Source: Candidatus Dojkabacteria bacterium
GTDB lineage: Bacteria > Patescibacteriota > Dojkabacteria > SC72 > JAHDCA01
Assembly: GCA_030583845.1 (NCBI GenBank)
Contig: CP129478.1
Coordinates: forward strand, 651,686-715,685
Direction: 5' to 3'
DNA: 64,000 nucleotides
The notes beneath the pieces are model-generated. The model searched no databases. It saw only the letters and a list, made by a program, of their open reading frames with translations, and was not told where the DNA came from. Shown here one piece after another: positions 4,919 to 14,903 of the stretch (position 1 is the first letter of the stretch; every line of letters starts with the position of its first letter). A program made the translations under genes and the position numbers.

Positions 4919-4967
4919 CCATGTGGCAGCCCTAAGTGGGTTAGACCCGCTCTGCTCAGAGTGGAAG

Positions 4968-4993
4968 TGCTCAGACCCGATCGGGTCTGAGCA
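4968..4993. repeat. 26-bp perfect palindrome TGCTCAGACCCGATCGGGTCTGAGCA (copy 1 of 4) with adjacent module TTAGACCCGCTCTGCTCAGAG (4941-4961)
   Basis: Read directly. Lies in the queA-tgt intergenic spacer. The same core recurs at 24162-24187, 57550-57591 and 58467-58498. Confidence 0.8.
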
Positions 4994-4995
4994 TT

Positions 4996-6108
4996 TTGCA
5001 AAAAACGCGGTATAATAACACCATGCACGATCTAAATAACATTAACTTCTTGCCAGATGCTACACGCGGAGCTGTCCGTTCAATCACCACGCAGCAGCTA
5101 AAATCCACAAACACAAAAGGCATCGTAGTAAACACCCTCCATCTACTTATCTCGCCCGGCCCTGAGCGGATCAAAGAGCTAGGTGGCATCCACAAATTTA
5201 TGAGCTGGGATGGACTTACCCTCTCGGATTCTGGAGGCTTTCAGGTATTCTCACTTCTACACTCAGGTAAGTGGGAAGGAAAGATCGACGAGAATGGAGC
5301 TATATTTAAGTCTCCACGAGATGGCAAAACACATGTGCTGACACCTGAGAAGTCGATAGATATTCAGATGATGCTGGGTACAGATATACTGGTGGTGCTT
5401 GATGATTGCAGGAAGGCAGTAACAACACGCGAGGAAGCTGAAGAGTCAGTAAATCGAACAATTGAATGGGCAAAGAGATGCAAAGAGCATTACCTAACCA
5501 GCTACAGCGACGCTGAAAGAGAGGGAAAGATGCTCTCAGCAGTAGTTCAAGGGGCGAATTTCAGCGACCTAAGAATCAAGTGTGCGGAAGCGCTGACAGA
5601 GATCGGCTTTGATGGCTACAATTTTGGTGGCTATGTACTGGATGATGAAGGGAAGCTTGTGCTAGACCAGATGAAGACAGTGGTGGACAACACTCCGGCC
5701 GATAAGTTCAAGTATGCGATGGGGGTAGGGAAGCCCGATGATATTTTCTACTCGGCTCAGGTAGGATACAAGCTTTTTGATACAGTGCTACCCACAAGGA
5801 ATGCAAGGCATGGCACACTTTACTCGGCGACCGCTACAAATGGCGAGATGCGCATACGAAATGCAGAATTCGCAACCGACACCGGTCCTATCGATGAGAG
5901 CTGCGACTGCGAGGCATGCACAAACCACTCAAAGGCCTATATTCATCAGATGATAAAGGTGGGCGAGATGACAGGAATGACTCTAGCAACAATCCACAAC
6001 ATCAGGTTTTATCAGCGGTTAATTGAGAAGATGAACGAGCTAGGTGAAGATGGTATAACATCTATAGAGTATAAAGATATTCTAAAACAATTAGCCGACG
6101 CATCATGA
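4996..6108 (+). CDS. tgt: queuine tRNA-ribosyltransferase (tRNA-guanine transglycosylase)
   Basis: 370 aa. Zinc site CDCEACTNHSKAYIHQM and MGVGKPDDIFYSAQVGYKLFDTVLPTRNARHG block. Confidence 0.9.
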   Translation: MQKTRYNNTMHDLNNINFLPDATRGAVRSITTQQLKSTNTKGIVVNTLHLLISPGPERIKELGGIHKFMSWDGLTLSDSGGFQVFSLLHSGKWEGKIDENGAIFKSPRDGKTHVLTPEKSIDIQMMLGTDILVVLDDCRKAVTTREEAEESVNRTIEWAKRCKEHYLTSYSDAEREGKMLSAVVQGANFSDLRIKCAEALTEIGFDGYNFGGYVLDDEGKLVLDQMKTVVDNTPADKFKYAMGVGKPDDIFYSAQVGYKLFDTVLPTRNARHGTLYSATATNGEMRIRNAEFATDTGPIDESCDCEACTNHSKAYIHQMIKVGEMTGMTLATIHNIRFYQRLIEKMNELGEDGITSIEYKDILKQLADAS

Positions 6109-10851: not shown

Positions 10852-10891
10852 TTAGTGCCGGTATTTCTCTGTTATATAAGAGAGAAAAGTT

Positions 10892-10926
10892 CGGGAGTCT
10901 GTATACAGGGCTCCCGATTCTTTTTT
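10892..10926 (+). terminator. Rho-independent terminator after hup
   Basis: Stem CGGGAG(10892-10897)...CTCCCG(10911-10916) followed by ATTCTTTTTT. Confidence 0.7.
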
Positions 10927-11025
10927 ATATGCTCTGCCTAATTTTCATGAAATTTAACGACAAACAGTGTCGTGCTCTGAGAAACTGCGATATAATCGTG
11001 TAGCAATACTTCCAGAGAGTACAAA

Positions 11026-12915
11026 ATGCCAGCCGAAAAACATGTAGATGCAATATTCACTAATTATCTAGAATCAGTATCACGCAAGTTCAAAAATGAG
11101 AGAACTTCTGAGATGGGCTATAGAGCTGAATTTGAGCAGCTATTAAAGAACGTATTTGAAGAGATAGGCGTCAAGGATATAGGTCATGATGAAAAGTCAT
11201 CTAAAGGGAATAAACCTGATTTTATAGTCTACAGCAAAGCTAGGGTCCCATTGCTTTACATTGAGGTGAAAGACATTGGGGTGTCGCTGGATAAGATAGA
11301 GCAATCTGAGCAAATTGCTAGATACTTCGGTTACGACAATCTTGTGCTGACAGATTATCTTGAGTTCCGGTTTTATAGGAATGGTCATAGGTATCAGGAT
11401 CCGGTAAAAATCGCCGTGTATGACAAGAAGGGACGCACGATTGAACCACAATCTCATAATTACCAAAATCTCGCGAAAACTCTACTCGATTTTACCAAAT
11501 CTCATAAAGAACCTATCAAATCAGGACTCCACCTTGCGAAGGTAATGGGCGGTAAAGCCAGAAGAATAAGAGACAATATTCTTGAGATTATTGAGCATCC
11601 GGACAAAGAGTCGGCTGATCTTGAGAAGGTATTCGATACAATCAAGACCTTGTTGGTACACGATCTCAAAATAGACGACTTCGCAGACATGTATGCCCAG
11701 ACTCTTGTGTATGGACTCTTCGTCGCAAGATTCTATGATGAATCAGAAGATAGCTTTAGCCGCGAGGAGGCTCGTGAGCTTATCCCTGCTTCTAATCCAT
11801 TTTTGAGGCACTTTTTCGATCATATTGCTGGACCAAATTTTAATGTTCGCCTTAAATACATCGTAGACGAGCTTTGTGAAGTGCTTAGCCATGCTGATAT
11901 TGAAAAACTGATGGATGATTATTACGGTAAGCAGTCAAAAGATCGTCGGAAGGCTCCTGATCCGGTTATCCATTTTTATGAAGACTTTCTCAAAGAGTAT
12001 GATCCGGTGTTGCGAAAAAAGATGGGAGCTTATTACACGCCTGTGCCAGTTGTGGATTTCATCGTACGATCTGTCGACCATATATTGAAAAAGGATTTCA
12101 GCCTACCGAAAGGATTGTCCGATACCAGTAAAGACCAGAAGGGTAATCACATTGTGCAGGTACTAGATCCAGCGGTAGGTACAGGAACTTTCTTCAGTGC
12201 TGTAATTAGGCATATATACGCACCATTCGCCAAGAATGAGAACCAAGGAGCTTGGCATAAGTACGTACACAACGAGCTTCTTCCAAGGCTTCATGGGTTT
12301 GAACTGATGATGGCTCCATACACGATAGCGCATCTACGTTTAACTGTCGCATTTAAGAAAACGGATTTTATCCACTTCAACAAAAGGTTGGGTATTTATC
12401 TCACGAACTCGCTTGATGACCTACAGGGTCAGGATGGACTATTCGCTTTCGGGTTTGCGGATAGTATTGCTCAGGAATCGGAAGCAGCAAGGAAGATAAA
12501 GCATGATACACCAGTTATGGTTGTTCTTGGCAATCCTCCCTACAGTGTCAGCTCTCAGAATAAAGGAGAATGGATCGAGAGTGAGGTGAAAGAGTACAAG
12601 AAAGATCTTAATGAAAGAAATATTCAACCGCTCTCTGATGATTACATTAAATTTATCCGTTTCGCAGAGCAACAGATCGAGAAAAATGGCTCAGGTATTG
12701 TGGCAATGATAACCAATAACTCTTTCCTCGATGGAATCATCCACAGGCAGATGCGTAAGCATCTCTTAGAAACGTTTGATGACATTTATGTAGTCGATTT
12801 GCATGGTAATTCGAAAAAGAAGGAGATGACTCCAGATGGTGGTAAAGATGAGAATGTATTTGACATTCAGCAAGGTGTCTCGATTAACTTTTTTGTTAAG
12901 AAGCCTCAAATATGA
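11026..12915 (+). CDS. MmeI-like type IIG restriction-modification enzyme, N-terminal fragment (PD-ExK nuclease + gamma-class N6-adenine methyltransferase)
   Basis: 629 aa. N-terminal PDFIVYSKARVPLLYIEVKD matches the MmeI-family D...E-x-K endonuclease core. MTase motif I VLDPAVGTGTFF and motif IV LGNPPYSV. The DLHGNSKKKE...DENVFDIQQGVSINFFVKK block, which normally leads into a specificity domain, is followed by a stop. Confidence 0.7.
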   Translation: MPAEKHVDAIFTNYLESVSRKFKNERTSEMGYRAEFEQLLKNVFEEIGVKDIGHDEKSSKGNKPDFIVYSKARVPLLYIEVKDIGVSLDKIEQSEQIARYFGYDNLVLTDYLEFRFYRNGHRYQDPVKIAVYDKKGRTIEPQSHNYQNLAKTLLDFTKSHKEPIKSGLHLAKVMGGKARRIRDNILEIIEHPDKESADLEKVFDTIKTLLVHDLKIDDFADMYAQTLVYGLFVARFYDESEDSFSREEARELIPASNPFLRHFFDHIAGPNFNVRLKYIVDELCEVLSHADIEKLMDDYYGKQSKDRRKAPDPVIHFYEDFLKEYDPVLRKKMGAYYTPVPVVDFIVRSVDHILKKDFSLPKGLSDTSKDQKGNHIVQVLDPAVGTGTFFSAVIRHIYAPFAKNENQGAWHKYVHNELLPRLHGFELMMAPYTIAHLRLTVAFKKTDFIHFNKRLGIYLTNSLDDLQGQDGLFAFGFADSIAQESEAARKIKHDTPVMVVLGNPPYSVSSQNKGEWIESEVKEYKKDLNERNIQPLSDDYIKFIRFAEQQIEKNGSGIVAMITNNSFLDGIIHRQMRKHLLETFDDIYVVDLHGNSKKKEMTPDGGKDENVFDIQQGVSINFFVKKPQI

Positions 12916-13442
12916 GCAAGAAAGGAAACTACGCTTTCATAGACAGTCAGAACTTGAACCTAGGTATGCGATCCTTGGGCTGGAGGATAGACTACCAGAA
13001 ATTTAGACTGTACCTGAAAAATAAATATAATGTGCAAAAGGCCTATCTATTTATTGGATTGGTTCCAAACAACCAACAATTGTATAGTGATCTACAATCT
13101 GCTGGCTTCATACTGGTATTTAAGCCGACAGTGAGATATTTTGTCCGTGGTAAGGAGACCGTCAAAGGTAATGTAGACGCAGAATTGGTTCTGCATGCTT
13201 CTGCAATCGAGTACAGCAAGTATGACAAGGCAATTATAGTAAGCGGTGATGGTGATTTTTCGTGTTTAATTCAGTTTCTGGTGAAAAGGAAAAAATTGTT
13301 GGCACTGTTAACTCCTAACTCCAAGTACTCGCAGCTACTAAAGCCGTACTCGCCATATATTACGAGAATTGATCAAATTATTAAGTCTTTTGGGTATAGG
13401 AAGAAAAGAAAAACCAGCATCAGCGTTCGGTCGAAACCTTAG
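12912..13442 (+). CDS. NYN/LabA-like (PIN-fold) nuclease-domain protein inserted between the two RM fragments
   Basis: 176 aa. AFIDSQNL, KGNVDAELVLHA and IIVSGDGDF motifs of the NYN domain. The ATG overlaps the TGA stop of the upstream fragment (ATGA). Confidence 0.7.
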   Translation: MSKKGNYAFIDSQNLNLGMRSLGWRIDYQKFRLYLKNKYNVQKAYLFIGLVPNNQQLYSDLQSAGFILVFKPTVRYFVRGKETVKGNVDAELVLHASAIEYSKYDKAIIVSGDGDFSCLIQFLVKRKKLLALLTPNSKYSQLLKPYSPYITRIDQIIKSFGYRKKRKTSISVRSKP

Positions 13443-13501
13443 GCCTATCTGGTTATGGTGATAGGAAATTCTATCACAAATAGATAAGTAGATCAATCAA
13501 C

Positions 13502-14719
13502 ATGAATAACAAAAACACTAAAAAGAAATTAGCAAGAGTTCATCATATTGACTTGTTTGGAAAGCGTGAGGATAAGTTTAAATTCCTAGAGGAGAACTCT
13601 GTGGCGAGTATTAGTTGGCAAAAGCTTAATTACATTCAGCCTTCGTTTTATTTTGTGCCAAAGGACTTTGGATCAATTGTGGAGTATGAAAGCGGGTTTA
13701 GGGTAGATGAGTTACTTACATTTAATGCAAGTGGGACAAAGTTTCGAAAAGATAACCTATTGGTAAGAAATCACTTCACACGATACGATGTAGAAAAAAT
13801 GTTAGAGGATATAAACACACTCTCTAAAGAAGATTTTCTTAATAAATATAACTTTAATGAAACTAAAGATTGGGTATTAAAGGAAAAGGTGCAGTATTTC
13901 GAGACCGATTACAATAATATTAGGAAGGTTCTTTATTCACCATTCGATACAAGATTCACGTATTATCCTGTTGAGAGAATCTCGAACATTATTCCAAGAG
14001 GTGATTCAAGGAAGCAAATGATGAAAAATTTCTTTGAACCAAACGTGGGACTTCTACTAATGCGGAAGCTTGTAAATACACAAAATTTTTCGACAATCAG
14101 TGTGTGTAATTGTATGGTCGATATTAACTATTACGGTTTTCAAACATATGTATTCCCGCTCTATCTGTACGCAGCCGATGGCTCAAAAACTTCAAATGTA
14201 AACGATGAAATCGCCGACAAGATAAAGCAATTAAATGGCACATTCACACCAGAAGAACTATTTGACTACATATACGCAGTGCTACACTCCCCAAACTACC
14301 GCGAAAAGTATAAGGAATTCCTCAAAATAGATTTCCCAAGAGTGCCATACCCGAAGGATCGCGAAACATTCGACAAATTTGTAAAACTGGGAAAACAGCT
14401 TAGAGAGCTCCACCTTATGGAATCTCCAAAGATCTCAGAGGCCAGTTTACCATTCCCCATAGAGGGTAGCGATTTAGTTGAGAGAGTTAAATATGAGGAC
14501 AGTAAAGTATTTATAAACAGCACTCAATATTTTGACAATGTACCTGAGATCGCATGGAATTTCTATATTGGTGGGTATCAACCAGCTCAGAAGTGGCTTA
14601 AGGATCGTAAGGGTCGGGAGCTATCGTATGAAGACATGGAGCATTATCAGAGGATTATTTTTGTACTTTTGGAGACTGATAAACTGATGAAAGAAATCGA
14701 TACTGTGATAAAGTTTTAG
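13502..14719 (+). CDS. type-ISP/MmeI-family C-terminal specificity (target-recognition) domain, C-terminal fragment of the split RM gene
   Basis: 405 aa. Opens with KKLARVHHIDLFGKREDKFKFLEENS, which normally follows the FFVKK block in single-chain enzymes. C-terminal WNFYIGGYQPAQKWLKDRKGRELSYEDMEHYQRII is the hallmark of the ISP/PglX C-terminal specificity domain. Confidence 0.65.
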   Translation: MNNKNTKKKLARVHHIDLFGKREDKFKFLEENSVASISWQKLNYIQPSFYFVPKDFGSIVEYESGFRVDELLTFNASGTKFRKDNLLVRNHFTRYDVEKMLEDINTLSKEDFLNKYNFNETKDWVLKEKVQYFETDYNNIRKVLYSPFDTRFTYYPVERISNIIPRGDSRKQMMKNFFEPNVGLLLMRKLVNTQNFSTISVCNCMVDINYYGFQTYVFPLYLYAADGSKTSNVNDEIADKIKQLNGTFTPEELFDYIYAVLHSPNYREKYKEFLKIDFPRVPYPKDRETFDKFVKLGKQLRELHLMESPKISEASLPFPIEGSDLVERVKYEDSKVFINSTQYFDNVPEIAWNFYIGGYQPAQKWLKDRKGRELSYEDMEHYQRIIFVLLETDKLMKEIDTVIKF

Positions 14720-14903
14720 TAATTAGAAGTAAATGGCATTATTGTTCAAATTGGGATAGCGCTCTGTTTGATTTATTTGGAAAGCCATTTACAGTGGTAA
14801 GATTCTCTATGAATAGGCTTACGTTTTGGGTTTACTAAAGAATTTAAATCTAATACACTGTACTAAGCAAAATTGTGAAATAAATCTTTGTAAACTGCCG
14901 TAA

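Follow-up and report, generated by a model that had tools for sequence, protein, structure and literature searches.

Restriction–modification (RM) enzymes such as DrdV (type IIL, PDB 7lo5) and the Type ISP enzymes LlaBIII and LlaGI (4xqk and 5ffj, comprising the methyltransferase (MTase) and the target-recognition domain (TRD)) share one order of domains, in which a nuclease is followed by a gamma-class N6-adenine methyltransferase and a specificity domain of the Type_ISP_C kind. All three are single polypeptides, the ISP enzymes adding a helicase-like motor. A separate specificity (S) subunit combined with a nuclease–methylase subunit also works, as in BsaXI, an (RM)2S enzyme (PMC11997821), and the BcgI-like Hpy99XXII (PMC3936762), where the two genes are ancestral and the S subunits HsdS-like. 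Here we describe a locus in a 64,000-nucleotide (nt) stretch of a Candidatus Dojkabacteria genome (contig CP129478.1, positions 651,686 to 715,685 of the forward strand; hereafter the window, to which all coordinates refer unless a locus is named) in which an enzyme with the first domain order is found in two pieces. Its chain is cut, and the gap is filled by a foreign cassette that carries a gene for an NYN-family protein and a predicted antisense RNA. We propose that the two pieces work together, one as the nuclease–methylase and the other as a separate recognition subunit, as in BsaXI and Hpy99XXII; unlike in those enzymes, the split is secondary, the nearest relatives are single chains, and the S half is a Type_ISP_C domain.

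Small nuclease or toxin genes nested between restriction components have been described before. The Type IC locus ecoprrI harbours prrC (PMC12707154), and a preprint on 'guilt by embedding' (10.1101/2024.01.29.577857) reported defence candidates nested in multi-gene systems, including the NYN protein HEC-09 in Hma, which gave no phage protection in the assays; the term 'Type IIG' is absent from its main text. The NYN gene of the window, and that of a second locus, L001, are nested in a comparable way. However, the known examples are found between the distinct genes of Hma, BREX, DISARM or Type I systems, whereas here the insertion is inside a normally single gene and creates the split, and the NYN cassette, unlike embedded defence genes, is mostly located outside defence loci. 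The division of a single gene by a free-standing homing endonuclease gene is reportedly seen in the Aeromonas phage Aeh1, in which mobE splits nrdA into functional pieces. There, as here, a small nuclease gene is located in a conserved enzyme gene and two ORFs (open reading frames) cover the original protein without loss; NYN, in contrast, is not known as a homing-endonuclease family, and its cassette adds an antisense RNA gene.

The locus comprises three ORFs on the plus strand, each in a different reading frame. ORF1, the RM half (11026..12915; 629 amino acids (aa)), ends in a TGA that is overlapped by the ATG of the NYN gene (12912..13442; 176 aa; PIN-like, LabA/DUF88) in a 4-nt ATGA, and the ATG of ORF3, the S half (13502..14719; 405 aa), follows 59 nt past the NYN stop codon. 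An earlier reading of this DNA, made from the letters alone (the sequence-only reading), had placed the three ORFs, the overlap and the 59-nt gap as given here, and all of this was confirmed. Each of the three proteins is identical to an annotated product of a 1.04-Mb contig from a Candidatus Dojkabacteria metagenome-assembled genome.

Within ORF1, an N-terminal PD-(D/E)xK nuclease is followed by a helical spacer and a gamma-class N6-adenine methyltransferase. Pfam assigned N6_Mtase (50 bits, cutoff 20.4) and Eco57I (39.8 bits, cutoff 25.3) to this ORF, along with a weak match to HSDR_N_2 that stayed below cutoff (E = 1.2e-3). The methyltransferase motifs VLDPAVGTGTFF and NPPY are present, and the nuclease motif reads KPD-x14-EVK; the sequence-only reading had quoted the motifs correctly but had counted the nuclease spacing as D-x12 instead of D-x14. 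Fifty intact homologs show no variation at the nuclease residues E73 and K75 and hardly any at D59. ORF3 starts with a conserved N-terminal module of ~70 residues (KLARVHHIDLFGKREDKFKFL...) and continues with a complete Type_ISP_C target-recognition domain (Pfam PF18135; 249 bits, E = 7.6e-74, profile positions 2–341 of 342), which bears out the ISP-type C-terminal domain previously proposed for it. In the majority of the listed ORF1 homologs this domain is the C-terminal part of a single chain of ~1000 aa. In the window it is encoded by a separate ORF, 590 nt downstream and in another frame, and the enzyme is thus not a single chain.

Sequence comparison confirms that ORF1 and ORF3 are consecutive pieces of one type IIG/IIL enzyme that has been cut seamlessly, in agreement with the earlier proposal that ORF3 continues ORF1. 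The identity of ORF1 to intact ~1000-aa homologs is 67–72%, and in an alignment with seven such homologs ORF1 and ORF3 abut without lost or duplicated residues, in a short loop of variable length. Where the intact enzymes read ..QGVSINIFIRK-TEEKAGLGKIHHFDLYG.. across the junction, ORF1 ends with ..QGVSINFFVKK followed by PQI and the stop codon, and ORF3 opens with MNN followed by KNTKKKLARVHHIDLFG... Both halves also fall onto the same type IIG profile of PADLOC (PDLC03610, REase_MTase_IIG, 1096 positions), which ORF1 matches from position 3 on (best stretch 3–495, E = 2e-177) and which ORF3 covers at positions 651–1075.

We then located the split site on an AlphaFold model of an intact homolog (P0125), whose mean predicted local distance difference test (pLDDT) score is 72.5. 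The site corresponds to a 9-residue coil (residues 620–628; pLDDT ~82) between the strands E613–619 and E629–634, and sequence homology to the DrdV MTase stops at residue 624. Because E613–619 is the seventh and last MTase strand when counted from NPPY, which follows strand E490–496, we infer from the model that the cut was made at the true end of the methyltransferase domain; ORF1 itself ends 3 codons past this strand.

Among solved structures, and over the whole chain, the intact homolog P0125 matched DrdV (type IIL) and the Type ISP enzymes LlaBIII and LlaGI best, in both sequence and fold. MmeI was not among the top matches in either the fold or the sequence search, ORF1 and ORF3 yielded no MmeI_N or MmeI TRD hits in Pfam, and MmeI_Mtase reached 26.7 bits on ORF1, just below its cutoff of 27. 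The description of the enzyme as 'MmeI-like' was therefore loose.

Two ways of obtaining an undivided protein from the locus were rejected. If UGA were a sense codon, read-through of the ORF1 TGA would add only 8 codons before a TAG, so that the halves would stay unjoined. An intron, an intein or a translational bypass is ruled out by the use of three frames and by the small amount of non-ORF DNA (59 nt 3' of NYN and none 5' of it), which leaves no room for a group I/II core; in addition, the same cassette is found between separate genes elsewhere.

Turning to the insert, the NYN assignment is based on a Pfam match of 57.5 bits (PF01936, cutoff 24.2) and on a match to PDB 2qip (E = 9e-9). Four acidic active-site residues (D11, D89, D113 and D115) are at least 97% conserved among 142 homologs. 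The family is large, with more than 8000 clusters of NYN homologs, all of them stand-alone proteins of 162–225 aa, and the window protein additionally matches the PADLOC profiles NYN and HEC-09 weakly. Its nearest relative (P0002, 73% identical) is encoded between a gene for a major facilitator superfamily (MFS) transporter and a peptidase gene, and not in an RM gene. The NYN gene itself appears to have no conserved promoter, and its last 11–12 codons overlap a second gene, which we predict to encode an antisense RNA.

This prediction started from a block of ~60 nt over the NYN stop codon, which is conserved at the DNA level in unrelated loci, far better than the coding sequence 5' of it. The predicted RNA of ~56 nt (13407..13462, minus strand) is complementary to the 3' end of the NYN mRNA and consists of a 5' tail, AUCACCAU, followed by three nested helices (P1, P2 and P3). 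P3 is capped by an invariant UUCG loop, and P1 is predicted to double as a terminator because it is followed by a U-tract. RNAalifold returned the three nested helices with compensatory changes in 9 of the 12 pairs. When covariation was counted, 95.6% of cells were paired, and the 65 double-change cells compare with 18.9 in shuffles, none of 500 shuffles reaching this number; sliding the pairs dropped pairing to 17–54%. A covariance model built without the window detected the window copy over its full length (13462–13407, minus strand) with 77.4 bits (E = 2.8e-20), and found this one copy in the whole 64 kb.

A promoter points in the same direction. A sigma-70-type promoter (TTGATC-N17-TG-n-TAGAAT; 13468..13496, minus strand) that faces the 3' end of NYN was found by a scan independent of the comparison, and the ORF3 ATG is 5 nt away from the end of its -35 box. 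Equivalents are kept in most cassette copies: a near-consensus promoter (TTGACA-N17-TATAAT) with at least 10 of 12 matching positions is present in 68 of 96 unique copies, compared with 1 of 96 shuffled controls, and a T-run begins 47–58 nt downstream in 88 of the 96 copies. The RNA accompanies NYN in 26 of 27 loci gathered by protein similarity alone and is found in none of nine split or decayed type IIG loci that have no NYN. When the RNA is taken as the starting point, 84 of 109 cores have NYN homology directly upstream, and the remaining 25 comprise 10 that are cut by contig ends and 15 orphans.

In type I toxin–antitoxin systems of B. subtilis, an antisense RNA over the 3' end of the toxin mRNA promotes RNase III-dependent mRNA decay (PMC6562991). 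The predicted RNA of the window would likewise be a cis-encoded antisense RNA that overlaps the 3' end of an mRNA. The protein differs, as type I toxins are small hydrophobic, usually membrane peptides, whereas NYN is a 176-aa protein with a soluble, PIN-like nuclease fold. The loops and internal bulges of the RNA are almost invariant, which hints at protein binding as in type III systems, because pure antisense pairing would need no such conservation. A search of Rfam 15 over the element, with the window copy and the copies of three other loci, gave no match at an E-value of 1 or better, and in the literature we found no description of an NYN–antisense-RNA module.

Some RNA copies depart from the common arrangement. 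The ~15 orphan copies have a promoter and no NYN homology within 700 nt upstream (L039, L058, L086, L102, L110, L131, L142, L160, which is a viral contig, and others); they may stand alone as RNA genes or be partnered with some other protein. L022 has its RNA copy 3' of NYN on the same strand, opposite in orientation to every other copy. Two to three tandem RNA copies follow the 3' end of NYN at L023:1386-1707, L024:6489-6591 and L025:4235-4399, and the 16-mer core occurs twice, 46–48 nt apart, in L046, L060 and L062. Such tandem copies are reminiscent of the repeat arrays of type III antitoxins. Of the 16-mer motif hits in a metagenome scan, ~40 occur without NYN and lack the extended motif, and these are probably chance matches at that database size.

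Together, the NYN gene and the antisense RNA gene form a unit of ~590 base pairs (bp) (12912..13497, plus strand), which we refer to as the cassette. Across unrelated loci, its DNA conservation spans from the YAFIDSQN codons to the antisense -35 box, so that the antisense promoter constitutes the right edge. More than 100 copies were found in unrelated, mostly housekeeping contexts, and only the window and one other lineage (L001) have the cassette inside a type IIG gene; type IIG flanks were found at none of 25 genome loci and at none of 65 metagenome NYN loci. Examples of the contexts are pheS–NYN–pheT, ABC-2 permease–NYN–ABC ATPase, RadC–NYN–HsdM, and NYN beside an M20 peptidase gene. The 128 immediate neighbours that were tallied are correspondingly diverse, with PheS, YchF and N6_Mtase represented four times each. 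RM methylases adjoin NYN cassettes in L011 (HsdM) and in L017 and L018 (MmeI-like), and the affinity of the cassette for methylase loci is suggested to be mild at most. NYN is therefore unlikely to be a dedicated partner of the restriction enzyme, given that beyond these two lineages none of the cassettes examined (over 100) lies in a type IIG gene and that their neighbours are mostly housekeeping genes. At L017, an FMN (flavin mononucleotide) riboswitch (5781-5902, minus strand; 99 bits) lies directly 5' of the NYN cassette, and a 1010-aa MmeI-like type IIG gene then follows the cassette.

The cassette also accounts for a feature that the sequence-only reading had taken as a sign of organised co-translation, namely the overlap of the ORF1 stop codon with the NYN start codon. 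Irrespective of what lies upstream, 39 of 58 cassettes start with ATGA, and the TGA ends an upstream ORF of at least 96 aa in only seven. The overlap is thus largely a built-in feature of the cassette 5' end and weak evidence for a purpose-built operon. Of the three explanations offered by that reading, a selfish NYN gene inside an RM gene comes closest, with the amendment that NYN is part of a cassette with an antisense RNA and its promoter. A larger conserved mobile element was to count against the earlier proposal; conservation does extend beyond the NYN ORF, but no inverted repeats or target-site duplications were found at the cassette, and it is for this reason not shown to be a transposon. 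Around the cassettes there is a weak, unconvincing excess of 7–9-nt repeats, and their flanks contain no conserved target sequence.

The second NYN-split enzyme gene, in an unrelated neighbourhood (L001/L002), encodes an RM half of 628 aa and an S half of 425 aa, and the NYN gene between them overlaps the RM half by the same 4 nt. The homologous loci thus include most relatives as intact ~1000-aa chains, and one lineage that repeats the tripartite layout, as a comparison proposed in the sequence-only reading was to establish. The L001 NYN shares 57% identity with that of the window and ranks 139 of 141 in similarity, whereas NYNs elsewhere are 73% identical to the window protein. The L001 RNA belongs to a different subtype with a 4-nt insertion. 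Moreover, the two host genes do not group as sisters: such a grouping receives bootstrap support of 0% with the RM half, 34% with the S half and 9% with both concatenated, and each gene is nested among intact single-chain enzymes. Since NYN similarity, host-gene bootstraps and RNA subtype all disagree with a shared origin, the window and L001 represent two insertions made independently of each other, or replacements of the cassette; a shared ancestral insertion of NYN is excluded on the same grounds (NYN tree, host-gene bootstraps and differing RNA subtype).

Splits in other relatives occur at the same place (P0125 residues ~618–629), with different inserts. The contig of P0249 carries a DUF1016/YhcG nuclease gene, L031 an 82-aa homolog of the PADLOC phage-defence candidate PDC-S05, L037 an SLFN_AlbA_2/HATPase_c_4 gene, and L163 an SLFN_AlbA_2 gene plus DUF1016. 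Upstream of an identical S half, L165 has a 93-aa ORF where L166 has a PDDEXK_3 gene. In L030, a gene of the GIY-YIG family, a classic homing-endonuclease family, shortly precedes an S half that stands alone. L033, a type IIG homolog located on a contig of 1.2 Mb, has no insert and instead an exact 85-bp tandem duplication at the MTase–specificity loop (4963-5132), which frameshifts the gene into overlapping ORFs of 647 aa and 412 aa; this could be the footprint of repair at a hotspot or an artefact of assembly. Split forms without NYN group in a divergent clade, which in this sample contains only two-gene forms, with intact halves and changing cargo. These comparisons indicate that the MTase–specificity loop is used recurrently as a cargo site, and by analogy the pattern resembles that of genes embedded in multi-gene defence systems. 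The sequence-only reading had considered an NYN-interrupted type IIG gene undescribed; we likewise found none in the literature, but the interruption itself is less singular, as the same loop holds other cargo in relatives.

Further features were noted at these loci. In L163:1-6305, the upstream protein has a Type_ISP_C domain with an inserted DUF559 and is followed by SLFN_AlbA_2, DUF1016 and a second, stand-alone Type_ISP_C ORF, which could be a spare or alternative specificity module; Type_ISP_C and DUF559 are also combined in three hits of the ORF3 search (P0322, P0338 and P0346). A tyrosine integrase gene (L037:6614-7846) lies directly 3' of the split type IIG locus with SLFN/AlbA_2 cargo, which suggests that the whole unit is on a mobile island. 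Directly 5' of another split type IIG locus are YoeB/ParE-like and PIN_3 toxin genes (L165:1351-2355), a further clustering of toxin-type genes around these enzymes.

Taken together, we consider it probable, with moderate confidence, that an acquired RM gene was split by an autonomous cassette, with NYN coupled to the upstream gene and restrained by the RNA, and that the halves reassemble. In this picture, a type IIG/IIL RM gene that ancestrally combined nuclease, N6-adenine methyltransferase and Type_ISP_C in one chain would have been acquired horizontally, and the ~590-bp cassette would have entered it at the short surface loop that follows the last methyltransferase strand, giving rise to an RM gene and an S gene. 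Any gene upstream, in the window the RM half, would drive the expression of NYN by read-through and translational coupling. The antisense RNA, with its strong promoter, would restrain NYN, either by pairing with the 3' end of its mRNA or by binding the protein, an option raised by the near-invariant loops and by the tandem RNA copies of some loci. The cassette may then act as a selfish module of the addiction or abortive-infection type. The two enzyme halves would reassemble non-covalently, by analogy with BcgI/BsaXI-type and Type I enzymes; if so, the loop would be among the few places that tolerate insertions, and cargo would accumulate there.

Several points weigh against this picture. At the ends of the cassette we found neither terminal or inverted repeats nor convincing target-site duplications, and mobility machinery was likewise not found. 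The toxicity of NYN is an assumption, and the candidate HEC-09, which is a different NYN, showed no phage protection. On the proposed strand, G-U exceeds A-C by only 13 to 6, and the covariation taken alone would also fit a hairpin that works as single-stranded DNA, such as a recombination site, and not as RNA. The convergent antisense promoter, which lies 5 nt from where ORF3 starts, could hinder transcription from entering that gene. Decayed relatives exist as well: L004 has an in-frame stop and a frameshift, and of L036 only a 123-aa specificity-domain remnant is left. Finally, at family-invariant columns the window shows mismatches at 6 of 208 positions in the RM half and at 1 of 43 in the S half, and the decayed L004 and L036 fare no worse.

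The last points bear on the alternative that survives best, namely that the cassette killed the RM gene and that the halves look intact because the event is recent and decay is under way, which we regard as unlikely. In its favour, relatives are caught decaying (L004 and L036), and ORF3, which faces the convergent promoter, has no ribosome-binding site or promoter of its own that could be recognised by a promoter scan or by scoring of Shine–Dalgarno (SD) pairing. The missing SD is, however, not evidence against the translation of ORF3, since this genome hardly uses such sites and its ORFs score no better than random (median SD pairing energy of -0.8 kcal/mol for 54 ORFs of at least 150 aa in the 64 kb, against -2.35 for random 18-mers). 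The invariant-residue test is compatible with recent inactivation, the RM half having 6 substitutions against a leave-one-out mean of 1.9 and a maximum of 11, but all 6 are conservative; as a test for relaxed selection it was rejected as powerless, because decayed L004 and L036 score like the window. Against inactivation, neither ORF is shortened, no catalytic motif is missing and the Type_ISP_C domain is complete; ORF3 begins with a clean ATG precisely at the loop, and the independent lineage L001 has the same intact three-part layout. Had the split abolished function, a divergent clade that in this sample comprises only two-gene forms, with intact halves and changing cargo, would be difficult to account for, and enzymes with separate S subunits do work, as seen with Hpy99XXII (PMC3936762) and with BsaXI in its (RM)2S form (PMC11997821).

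A more far-reaching version of the split-enzyme picture, which we regard as speculative and less likely still, is that the cassette represents a new class of RNA-controlled nuclease toxin or abortive-infection module abundant in Patescibacteria, that its repeated capture by the loop has been selected, and that the result is a three-part defence unit in which the split enzyme and the RNA-restrained RNase support each other, amounting to a PrrC-like guardian contained in a single gene. Were this to hold, the loop would be a dedicated cargo slot and would extend embedded defence to single-gene systems.

Rather improbable, in our view, is a dedicated three-part defence in the manner of PrrC, in which the NYN RNase, as a guardian or effector with functional ties to the RM and S halves, would stay inactive as long as the enzyme is undamaged and be released once phage anti-restriction proteins interfere with it. 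Two distinct NYN cassette lineages in the same loop of two different type IIG genes would fit this view, as would the translational coupling of NYN to the RM half, the abutment of other cassettes on RM methylases (HsdM in L011, MmeI-like in L017 and L018; N6_Mtase for 4 of 128 neighbours) and the weak match of the window NYN to the PADLOC profiles NYN and HEC-09. Precedents are prrC in ecoprrI (PMC12707154) and HEC-09 in Hma systems (preprint 10.1101/2024.01.29.577857). Yet the great majority of cassettes reside in housekeeping contexts with no RM gene near, the closest relative of the NYN lies between MFS transporter and peptidase genes, and HEC-09 showed no defence. Because the cassette brings along its own regulator, the antisense RNA, it would need no RM partner.

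Least probable is a homing-type invasion, in which NYN, or the cassette hairpin as a DNA site, targets the linker sequence and copies the cassette into empty alleles: the same loop was struck twice independently, the split is clean with both halves intact, a GIY-YIG gene lies just 5' of the stand-alone S half of L030, and the exact 85-bp duplication at the loop of L033 hints at DNA breakage and repair, but the cassette flanks have no conserved target, the insertion contexts are highly diverse, a clear target-site duplication was not found, NYN is a PIN-like fold best known from RNases and, to our knowledge, not a known homing-endonuclease family, and the recurrence is equally explained by selection, with the loop tolerating insertions, as the unrelated cargo suggests.

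Separate specificity subunits, genes nested in multi-gene defence systems and nuclease genes that split their hosts into working pieces are already known. What appears to be new is, on the one hand, the nesting within a type IIG/IIL gene whose product is normally a single chain, at one and the same loop and with varied cargo, and, on the other hand, the NYN–antisense-RNA cassette as a large, mobile-looking family with an undescribed structured RNA. The interest of the locus mostly stems from the cassette and the cargo-slot pattern, and less from the single insertion. If the split-enzyme picture is correct, an NYN family of candidate-phyla-radiation bacteria with more than 8000 protein clusters travels with a new family of structured antisense RNAs, and would be a candidate for a new kind of RNA-regulated toxin module in organisms whose regulation is little understood. 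The discovery of defence genes by nesting would extend to single-chain restriction enzymes, with the gene split at a predictable loop. The natural split sites would also mark where type IIG/IIL enzymes separate into RM and exchangeable specificity modules, which would be useful for engineering specificities.

The split gene is set in a low-GC RM island, as the sequence-only reading had noted together with the terminator and the hairpin that border it; all three were found to be real. The GC content of the locus is 0.33–0.44, compared with 0.45–0.51 in the flanks. On the left, the GC profile places the edge of the island at the intrinsic terminator of the upstream HU gene (hup), which a terminator scan located at 10891..10917 (plus strand). 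The right edge is marked by a hairpin 3' of ORF3 (14729..14793, plus strand), which has a fold energy of -17.4 kcal/mol and no U-run. Between the terminator and ORF1 (10918-11025), a TATAAT box ~30 nt ahead of the ATG is accompanied by the inverted repeat CGACAAACAGTGTCG; the two may be the promoter and operator of the RM island.

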